A stretch of 40,943 nucleotides of DNA from Teseptimavirus T7: the sequence record PP384393, one strand, 5' to 3'. Positions 22,875 through 25,016 of this stretch are shown piece by piece (positions within the stretch are counted from its first letter, which is position 1; each line of letters starts with the position of its first letter). The notes under the pieces are model-generated. The model worked only from the letters and a program-made list of their open reading frames with translations, was not told the DNA's origin and did no database searches. The position numbers and the translations under genes are program-made.

Positions 22875-22887
22875 TAGACTTCGAAAT

Positions 22888-22910
22888 TAATACGACTCAC
22901 TATAGGGAGA
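22888..22910 (+). promoter_or_regulatory. T7 class III promoter phi10 (native copy) with s10 leader/RBS to 22967
   Basis: taatacgactcactatagggaga + ...tctagaaataattttgtttaactttaagaaggagatatacatATG. Confidence 0.95.
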
Positions 22911-22967
22911 CCACAACGGTTTCCCTCTAGAAATAATTTTGTTTAACTTTAAGAAGGAGATATACAT

Positions 22968-24005
22968 ATGGCTAGCATGACTGGTGGACAGCAAATGGGT
23001 ACTAACCAAGGTAAAGGTGTAGTTGCTGCTGGAGATAAACTGGCGTTGTTCTTGAAGGTATTTGGCGGTGAAGTCCTGACTGCGTTCGCTCGTACCTCCG
23101 TGACCACTTCTCGCCACATGGTACGTTCCATCTCCAGCGGTAAATCCGCTCAGTTCCCTGTTCTGGGTCGCACTCAGGCAGCGTATCTGGCTCCGGGCGA
23201 GAACCTCGACGATAAACGTAAGGACATCAAACACACCGAGAAGGTAATCACCATTGACGGTCTCCTGACGGCTGACGTTCTGATTTATGATATTGAGGAC
23301 GCGATGAACCACTACGACGTTCGCTCTGAGTATACCTCTCAGTTGGGTGAATCTCTGGCGATGGCTGCGGATGGTGCGGTTCTGGCTGAGATTGCCGGTC
23401 TGTGTAACGTGGAAAGCAAATATAATGAGAACATCGAGGGCTTAGGTACTGCTACCGTAATTGAGACCACTCAGAACAAGGCCGCACTTACCGACCAAGT
23501 TGCGCTGGGTAAGGAGATTATTGCGGCTCTGACTAAGGCTCGTGCGGCTCTGACCAAGAACTATGTTCCGGCTGCTGACCGTGTGTTCTACTGTGACCCA
23601 GATAGCTACTCTGCGATTCTGGCAGCACTGATGCCGAACGCAGCAAACTACGCTGCTCTGATTGACCCTGAGAAGGGTTCTATCCGCAACGTTATGGGCT
23701 TTGAGGTTGTAGAAGTTCCGCACCTCACCGCTGGTGGTGCTGGTACCGCTCGTGAGGGCACTACTGGTCAGAAGCACGTCTTCCCTGCCAATAAAGGTGA
23801 GGGTAATGTCAAGGTTGCTAAGGACAACGTTATCGGCCTGTTCATGCACCGCTCTGCGGTAGGTACTGTTAAGCTGCGTGACTTGGCTCTGGAGCGCGCT
23901 CGCCGTGCTAACTTCCAAGCGGACCAGATTATCGCTAAGTACGCAATGGGCCACGGTGGTCTTCGCCCAGAAGCTGCTGGTGCAGTGGTTTTCAAAGTGG
24001 AGTAA
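22968..24005 (+). CDS. 10A: Gp10A major capsid protein
   Basis: 345 aa, MASMTGGQQMG... N-terminus, ends ...VVFKVE. Confidence 0.98.
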   Translation: MASMTGGQQMGTNQGKGVVAAGDKLALFLKVFGGEVLTAFARTSVTTSRHMVRSISSGKSAQFPVLGRTQAAYLAPGENLDDKRKDIKHTEKVITIDGLLTADVLIYDIEDAMNHYDVRSEYTSQLGESLAMAADGAVLAEIAGLCNVESKYNENIEGLGTATVIETTQNKAALTDQVALGKEIIAALTKARAALTKNYVPAADRVFYCDPDSYSAILAALMPNAANYAALIDPEKGSIRNVMGFEVVEVPHLTAGGAGTAREGTTGQKHVFPANKGEGNVKVAKDNVIGLFMHRSAVGTVKLRDLALERARRANFQADQIIAKYAMGHGGLRPEAAGAVVFKVE

Positions 24006-24066
24006 AAACACGTGGCAAACATTCCAAACCGGAGCCATACAGTACAAAGCACTCTTAGGCCTCTGT

Positions 24067-24205
24067 ACCCACGCCGAAACAAGCGCTCATGAGCCCGAAG
24101 TGGCGAGCCCGATCTTCCCCATCGGTGATGTCGGCGATATAGGCGCCAGCAACCGCACCTGTGGCGCCGGTGATGCCGGCCACGATGCGTCCGGCGTAGA
24201 GGATC
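24067..24205 (-). pseudogene. tetA: Internal fragment of pBR322 tetA (tetracycline efflux), antisense, non-functional
   Basis: Reverse complement translates to [46 protein letters not shown]; this is the backbone segment that sits upstream of the T7 promoter in pET-type vectors. Confidence 0.7.
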
Positions 24206-24227
24206 GAGATCTCGATCCCGCGAAATT

Positions 24228-24250
24228 AATACGACTCACTATAGGGAGAC
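24228..24250 (+). promoter_or_regulatory. Second copy of T7 phi10 promoter (vector-derived) with modified s10 leader/RBS through 24305
   Basis: cgaaattaatacgactcactatagggagaccacaacggtttccctctagCaataattttgtttaactttaagaaggagatataCCATGG. Confidence 0.95.
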
Positions 24251-24305
24251 CACAACGGTTTCCCTCTAGCAATAATTTTGTTTAACTTTAAGAAGGAGAT
24301 ATACC

Positions 24306-25016
24306 ATGGTGAGCAAGGGCGAAGAAGATAACATGGCCATCATCAAGGAGTTCATGCGCTTCAAGGTGCACATGGAGGGCTCCGTGAACGGCCACGAGTT
24401 CGAGATCGAGGGCGAGGGCGAGGGCCGCCCCTACGAGGGCACCCAGACCGCCAAGCTGAAGGTGACCAAGGGTGGCCCCCTGCCCTTCGCCTGGGACATC
24501 CTGTCCCCTCAGTTCATGTACGGCTCCAAGGCCTACGTGAAGCACCCCGCCGACATCCCCGACTACTTGAAGCTGTCCTTCCCCGAGGGCTTCAAGTGGG
24601 AGCGCGTGATGAACTTCGAGGACGGCGGCGTGGTGACCGTGACCCAGGACTCCTCCCTGCAGGACGGCGAGTTCATCTACAAGGTGAAGCTGCGCGGCAC
24701 CAACTTCCCCTCCGACGGCCCCGTAATGCAGAAGAAGACCATGGGCTGGGAGGCCTCCTCCGAGCGGATGTACCCCGAGGACGGCGCCCTGAAGGGCGAG
24801 ATCAAGCAGAGGCTGAAGCTGAAGGACGGCGGCCACTACGACGCTGAGGTCAAGACCACCTACAAGGCCAAGAAGCCCGTGCAGCTGCCCGGCGCCTACA
24901 ACGTCAACATCAAGTTGGACATCACCTCCCACAACGAGGACTACACCATCGTGGAACAGTACGAACGCGCCGAGGGCCGCCACTCCACCGGCGGCATGGA
25001 CGAGCTGTACAAGTAA
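24306..25016 (+). CDS. mCherry: mCherry red fluorescent protein (synthetic, GC-rich codon usage)
   Basis: 236-aa [56 protein letters not shown]...GGMDELYK; MYG chromophore tripeptide present. Confidence 0.97.

Follow-up and report, generated by a model that had tools for sequence, protein, structure and literature searches.

The organization of the gene 10 region was analyzed in sequence record PP384393 (Teseptimavirus T7), considered at its full length of 40,943 nt and hereafter called the window. In the 5' to 3' direction this region contains the phi10 promoter and the s10 leader of gene 10, the capsid gene 10A, a short synthetic segment, a stretch of plasmid vector, a second copy of the phi10/s10 segment, an mCherry coding sequence (CDS), a polylinker remnant, the Tphi terminator and gene 11 (Table 1). 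The two phi10/s10 copies, between which gene 10A is located, form a single 84-nt direct pair detected by a repeat search and a whole-genome scan: they are identical at 83 of the 84 positions, their starts are 1339 nt apart, and no longer direct repeat exists in the genome besides the 160-bp terminal repeats. When up to three mismatches are allowed, the 84-mer occurs at exactly two sites in the window, against none in 100 dinucleotide-preserving shuffles. A previous reading of the window, made from the sequence only (the sequence-only reading), had described this repeat as about 85 bp long, at 22883-22967 and 24224-24305. The repeat itself stands, but its coordinates had to be corrected (the starts are off by 1 and 3 nt, the ends by 2 and 1 nt); nothing rests on these offsets. 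The pairwise alignment which had been proposed was run and confirms near-identity. The sole mismatch is A22931 in copy 1 versus C24270 in copy 2, and this A-to-C change abolishes, as had been noticed, the XbaI site of the second copy: the site is present at 22926 in copy 1, and copy 2 has TCTAGC in place of TCTAGA (24265-24270). The two start-codon contexts, catATGg and ccATGg, were also correctly read: copy 1 leads into CATATG (NdeI, 22965) and copy 2 into CCATGG (NcoI, 24304).

Table 1. Features of the gene 10 region of the window.
Feature	Coordinates	Strand	Support or remark
Repeat copy 1: native phi10 promoter and s10 (gene 10) leader, -23 to +61	22882..22965	+	Start of transcription 22905
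Contents of copy 1: class III consensus (23 nt), 5' leader hairpin, XbaI site, Shine-Dalgarno AAGGAG	22888-22910 (consensus); 22926 (XbaI)		
Gene 10A, major capsid protein, 345 aa; essential gene flanked by the repeats	22968..24005	+	100% identical to the 10A CDS of PP384396
oho1, 60-nt synthetic orthogonal assembly overhang, replacing the start of the 10B-specific region	24006..24065	+	Exact 60/60 primer match
Vector backbone, 155 nt: pBR322 tet(C)-derived stretch and BglII linker (BglII 24207)	24066..24220	+	Plasmid matches, restriction map
Repeat copy 2: vector-borne phi10 promoter ("T7p14") and s10 leader ("UTR1"), -23 to +61	24221..24304	+	Predicted start 24244
mCherry CDS, 236 aa and stop	24306..25016	+	PDB mCherry, DNA identity
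Untranslated vector polylinker remnant: XhoI, SacI, SmaI, Gly/Ser-His6 codons (25044-25061), TAATAA, EcoRI, SpeI, BamHI	25017..25111	+	Same in sister cassettes
Single 105-nt Tphi terminator segment, hairpin 25176-25211	25112..25216	+	Read as the merged survivor of the cassette and native copies
Gene 11 (tail protein), first gene downstream	25234..25824	+	Without T7 promoter of its own

The remainder of the window was compared by BLAST with wild-type T7 (V01146), which identifies it as a complete engineered T7 genome of 40,943 bp. Both 160-bp terminal direct repeats are present (1-160 and 40784-40943), so that the window covers a whole linear T7 genome rather than an excerpt. Wild-type sequence extends over positions 1-24005 and 25109-40943; between them an insert of 1103 nt (24006-25108) stands in for 97 nt of the 10B-specific region, and the total length amounts to 102.5% of wild-type T7. 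Outside the insert, only two differences with V01146 were observed: an extra A at 1896, and an A-to-G change at 22630 (N227S in gene 9; given as 22629 for the stock marker). Exactly these two differences are reported for their T7 stock by the authors of the PHEIGES phages (Levrier et al., Nat Commun 2024, PMC10933291). Taken together they constitute a provenance fingerprint of the PHEIGES T7 stock. Supplementary Data 6 of the same paper assigns the phage T7_mC-g10-o to GenBank PP384393. As designed for this phage, oho1 lies directly behind the 10A stop codon, and it matches base for base the primers gp10-oho1-as and oho1-mcherry-s (Supplementary Data 2, PMC10933291). The authors' T7-mC-g10-o contig matches, over its first 198 nt, positions 10453-10650 of the window on the minus strand; this is ordinary T7 sequence and is not diagnostic.

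The insert is shared with the other phages of the series. Positions 24006-25111 (1106 nt) show 100% identity with the cassettes in both PP384397 (T7_mCg1o) and PP384395 (T7_mCg17o), and positions 24227-25017, from the promoter to the stop codon, with that in PP384396 (T7_compile). In these three records the depositors annotated a "T7 promoter added for mCherry cassette". The reporter itself is a full-length match to the mCherry chains of PDB (E ~1e-161), and its DNA shows 100% identity with the CDS that PP384396 labels "mCherry". Upstream of the second promoter, the vector stretch begins at the binding site of the authors' primer pIVEX2.3d-seq1-s, TACCCACGCCGAAACAAGC; its positions 24066-24205 match plasmids carrying tet(C) at 100%, and pET-like plasmids were matched as well. 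A search of PLSDB for the source plasmid returned partial matches only, to mCherry, tet(C) and pET-like plasmids. No record of the phage collection searched spans at least 80% of the region 22700-25400, and an Rfam scan of this region gave no family reaching the gathering threshold.

The architecture of the insert is that of a pET/pIVEX expression cassette. The phi10 fragment begins at -23 (24244 - 23 = 24221), behind a BglII linker and a portion of the tet region of pBR322. It is followed by the complete s10 leader (5' hairpin, TTAACTTTA enhancer and AAGGAG), which ends at an NcoI start codon (24304). After the polylinker and tag comes a Tphi fragment, with a BamHI-GGCTGCTAAC junction at 25105-25120; the 105-nt Tphi segment starts at position 24106 of V01146. 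In the Studier/pET vectors the cloned phi10 fragment starts at -23 and the cloned Tphi fragment at T7 position 24106. The second copy is best explained as follows. The reporter cassette was amplified by polymerase chain reaction from the plasmid "T7p14-mCherry" (a pIVEX2.3d-type plasmid with a pET-family backbone), and joined right behind the gene 10A stop codon through the synthetic 60-nt overhang. As the promoter and leader of pET-family vectors are the T7 phi10/s10 segment itself, from -23 to about +61, placing the cassette behind gene 10 puts a second copy 1339 bp downstream of the original; the borrowed segment is re-inserted near its native source, and the duplication is thus a by-product of the design. 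The TCTAGC motif is most simply explained as a scar left by ligation of the compatible XbaI and NheI ends during the building of the plasmid, which seems likelier than a deliberate point change. This motif also suggests that a pIVEX promoter was joined to an NheI-UTR1 module. The sequence-only reading had missed that the construct is published, that the second copy comes from a pET/pIVEX vector and that TCTAGC is likelier a cloning scar.

Two other origins of the repeat were considered. pET-like vector sequence is a common assembly contaminant, and several of the matched "plasmids" attributed to unrelated species resemble pET vectors; reads from an expression vector could have been chimerically joined to a wild-type T7 assembly, in which case no phage would carry the second copy. 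This is highly improbable: the left junction is the designed 60-nt overhang, placed right behind the 10A stop codon as the published primers specify, the same cassette is found at two other designed loci in the sister genomes, and the phages were sequenced with Nanopore long reads and fluoresce (PMC10933291). Still less credible, to the point of being negligible, is the idea that the phi10 region underwent a natural segmental duplication in some wild T7-like phage which took up a foreign gene; nothing speaks for it beyond the existence of the repeat. The DNA surrounding the second copy consists of a synthetic overhang, a piece of tet(C) from pBR322, a restriction-site polylinker, codons for His6 and the sequence of mCherry, a fluorescent protein of coral origin that has been engineered; of the 339 matching records, none from a natural phage covers the insert. 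In a segmental duplication the segment and its flanks would come from the same genome; the flanks are here synthetic and vector DNA, and this candidate was rejected, as was the contamination artefact.

We conclude with great confidence that the window is the genome of a T7 reporter phage engineered in the laboratory, that this phage belongs to the PHEIGES T7-mC-g10-o lineage (Noireaux laboratory), and that the repeat is a by-product of the cassette design.

The consequences of the duplication for transcription were then considered. Perfect 23-nt class III consensus sites (TAATACGACTCACTATAGGGAGA, -17 to +6) number seven in the window, compared to six annotated class III promoters in wild-type T7 and to none expected by chance: they are located at 22888 and 24227, and at phi6.5, phi9, phi13, phi17 and phiOR. 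The +1 of phi10, annotated at position 22904 of V01146, corresponds to position 22905 of the window, and phi10 and the added promoter are identical from -23 to +26. The same 5' hairpin is predicted for the two leaders, and the A-to-C change falls outside it. T7 RNA polymerase would initiate at 22905 and at 24244, the two +1 G residues. As no terminator lies between 10A and mCherry, the phi10 transcripts are expected to be bicistronic (10A-mCherry, ~2.3 kb), and those of the added promoter (phi10') would be monocistronic (mCherry, ~0.97 kb). Both RNAs would end at the single Tphi (~25216), which is the only strong terminator within 22700-25400 and hence between phi10 and gene 11, and read-through would carry on into genes 11 and 12. 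The T7 layout has no promoter between Tphi and phi13; genes 11 and 12, having no promoter of their own, are thus transcribed by read-through of Tphi. Translation of mCherry would proceed from the s10 Shine-Dalgarno sequence and its start-codon context. The proposal of the sequence-only reading that mCherry is served by a class III promoter of its own and by the gene 10 ribosome-binding site (RBS) is supported: it fits the annotation of the depositors, the published description of the cassette (T7 promoter, strong RBS, mCherry, T7 terminator) and the mCherry fluorescence reported on infection for the g10 phages (PMC10933291). A sigma-70 promoter scan of 22700-25400 returned no site. Two weak terminator-like matches inside 10A were at chance level and were rejected.

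About 30 identical nt (CGAAATTAATACGACTCACTATAGGGAGA) are common to phi10 (22881-22910), the added promoter (24220-24249) and phi13 (28256-28285). The cassette promoter and phi13, located 4 kb downstream, thereby form a short direct repeat, and recombination between them would delete mCherry along with genes 11 and 12, both of them essential.

To what extent the window corresponds to the intended construct was examined by rebuilding the g10-o design from the published primers, that is T7 up to the 10A stop codon, the 1271-bp cassette of the sister phages, and T7 from position 24069. The rebuilt design measures 41,145 bp and contains two perfect 105-bp copies of Tphi, 202 bp apart, with oho2 and 37 nt of 10B between them. 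Some points weigh against the identification of the window with the T7-mC-g10-o design. The window is 202 bp shorter than the primer-derived design and lacks the second Tphi, and oho2, expected to be followed by T7 from 24069, has no match in the window with up to three mismatches. The use of both start sites is deduced from sequence identity and the reported fluorescence. The difference of 202 bp has a precise form: removing design positions 25112-25313, i.e. exactly one repeat period, gives the window base for base, with one copy of Tphi left, as a deletion mediated by the repeat predicts. In the sister phages T7_mCg1o and T7_mCg17o, which keep oho2 and both copies of Tphi, 13-18 kb of essential genes lie between these copies. 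The window thus represents either a derivative of the design in which the repeat has collapsed, or the phage as it was actually isolated. In the parts of the main text and supplements of PMC10933291 consulted, neither the absence of oho2 nor that of a second terminator is remarked on.

Several causes may account for the loss of the 202 bp. PHEIGES assembly uses exonuclease III only (PMC10933291), and annealing in the register of Tphi after exonuclease III resection is a possible one; recombination by T7 in the transcription-translation system (TXTL) or in cells is another. An error in the record, or a collapse of the repeat by the assembler, is less likely because the whole genomes were sequenced with Nanopore long reads (PMC10933291). 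The loss of Tphi may also have been favoured, as a tandem terminator would cut read-through into genes 11 and 12. On balance we are inclined to think that the window records an unreported and precise repeat-mediated edit of a phage genome assembled in a cell-free manner. Were this true, the window would constitute a small natural experiment within one design, in which one repeat pair, surrounding DNA that the phage can spare, collapsed, and the other, surrounding the capsid gene, was maintained by selection; it would also mean that phage designs made by overlap assembly with repeats of at least ~100 bp can be silently rewritten. As observed in the window, of the two designed repeat pairs, the one around dispensable DNA is now single-copy, and the one around gene 10A persists.

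The stability of the latter pair was evaluated. The two phi10/s10 copies would offer a substrate for homologous recombination or for single-strand annealing. In silico, recombination between them removes 1339 bp and gives a genome of 39,604 bp, in which phi10-s10 is fused to mCherry and the capsid gene is missing; the deletion of gene 10A foreseen by the sequence-only reading is thus the correct outcome. The reciprocal product measures 42,282 bp, i.e. 105.9% of wild type. Since a phage without capsid gene cannot propagate alone, the pair would be kept by purifying selection. It is intact, with the A/C difference retained, in the four sequenced genomes of the series (4/4), in all of which it brackets essential genes. 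That such repeats should be selected against when they recombine, and be nevertheless a possible source of instability, had also been anticipated, and fits both this conservation and the single-copy state of Tphi around dispensable DNA. Direct repeats of more than 8 nt flanking mCherry in such a way as to excise mCherry alone were not found, so that homology offers no route by which the reporter alone could be lost.

It may be, although we hold this only tentatively, that the pair is an active recombination hot spot, where capsid-less genomes of 39,604 bp arise continually and persist as rare, defective, helper-dependent forms, especially at high multiplicity of infection. This possibility is compatible with an origin of the repeat in the cassette design and bears only on the degree of instability. 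The 105-nt pair of the same design is single-copy here, with a junction exactly as a repeat-mediated deletion predicts, and Pierce, Kong and Masker (NAR 1991) reportedly found that deletion between direct repeats in T7 climbs steeply with repeat length. Homology arms of 100 bp carried on a plasmid suffice to obtain T7 recombinants in vivo (PMC4128545). The same work points in the other direction as well, as a transgene with a phi10 promoter inserted at the same position was kept through passage (PMC4128545). Moreover the pair is intact in the four consensus genomes, although a consensus cannot show rare variants, the A/C difference has not been homogenised, so that there is no sign of gene conversion, and the spacing of 1339 bp far exceeds the 202 bp of the collapsed pair.

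The insertion also affects the product of gene 10B. The -1 frameshift site GGTTTTC is kept at 23987-23993, and frameshift translation shows that the 10B-specific C-terminus (53 aa past the shared QSGV) is swapped for a tail of 21 aa, QSGVKTRGKHSKPEPYSTKHS, encoded by oho1 in the -1 frame (23993-24055, stop 24056-24058). The phage consequently cannot make authentic gp10B, the minor capsid protein.

Two features of the cassette remain to be mentioned. GC content across mCherry is 0.62-0.66, compared to ~0.5 in the flanks, and an open reading frame of 265 aa runs antisense to the reporter (24288-25085, minus strand); this frame almost certainly reflects the high GC content and codon optimisation of the reporter and does not represent a gene. 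The polylinker remnant represents ~95 nt of dispensable DNA in a genome which already exceeds the wild-type length.

The window was finally compared with known systems. With the PHEIGES T7-mCherry phages (PP384393, PP384397, PP384395 and PP384396) it shares the stock markers, oho1 and the TCTAGC variant of the leader, and its cassette is the same as that of g1-o and g17-o from oho1 to the BamHI site. The insertion point is that of the g10-o primer design, from which the window differs by the absence of oho2, of the 37-nt 10B remnant and of the second Tphi. T7_compile is unlike the window, with a shorter cassette, a repeat of 78 nt and no vector backbone, and with an insertion at V01146 24121/24122. 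With the Studier-type pET/pIVEX2.3d vectors the window cassette has in common the promoter from -23, the full s10 leader, the NcoI start, the BglII linker, the pBR322 tet fragment, the XhoI/SacI/SmaI-His6 polylinker and the Tphi fragment from T7 24106; it differs by TCTAGC in place of the XbaI site, and by its location in a phage beside the native element and not on a plasmid.

With respect to direct-repeat-mediated deletion in T7, the missing 202 bp lie exactly between perfect repeats of which one copy is left, which is the signature of this class of events, although for Tphi the event may date from the exonuclease III annealing in vitro rather than from an infected cell. The same type of deletion is predicted for the 84-nt pair, which is un-recombined in all the sequenced genomes. 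The presence of Tphi in one copy is the one unplanned feature of the construct, and a minor curiosity. For the design of such phages, reusing phi10/s10 and Tphi inside T7 creates direct repeats of 84 and 105 nt, which can collapse when they surround dispensable DNA, as for Tphi here, and are held by selection when they surround essential DNA. The biological weight of the duplication is otherwise small, its elements being among the most widely used in expression work.

The duplication is in fact an already known and published engineering feature made from standard parts, for which T7-DspB, or T7dsp(10B), gives an architectural precedent (Lu and Collins 2007; Schmerer et al. 2014, PMC4128545). 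In this phage a transgene equipped with a phi10 promoter and an RBS of its own was placed between genes 10 and 11, which likewise duplicates phi10 around the capsid gene, and a transgene of this type was maintained during passage (PMC4128545). T7-DspB differs from the window by its T7Select415 backbone, its 10B display fusion, its multiple cloning site and its cargo, dspB with or without trxA.

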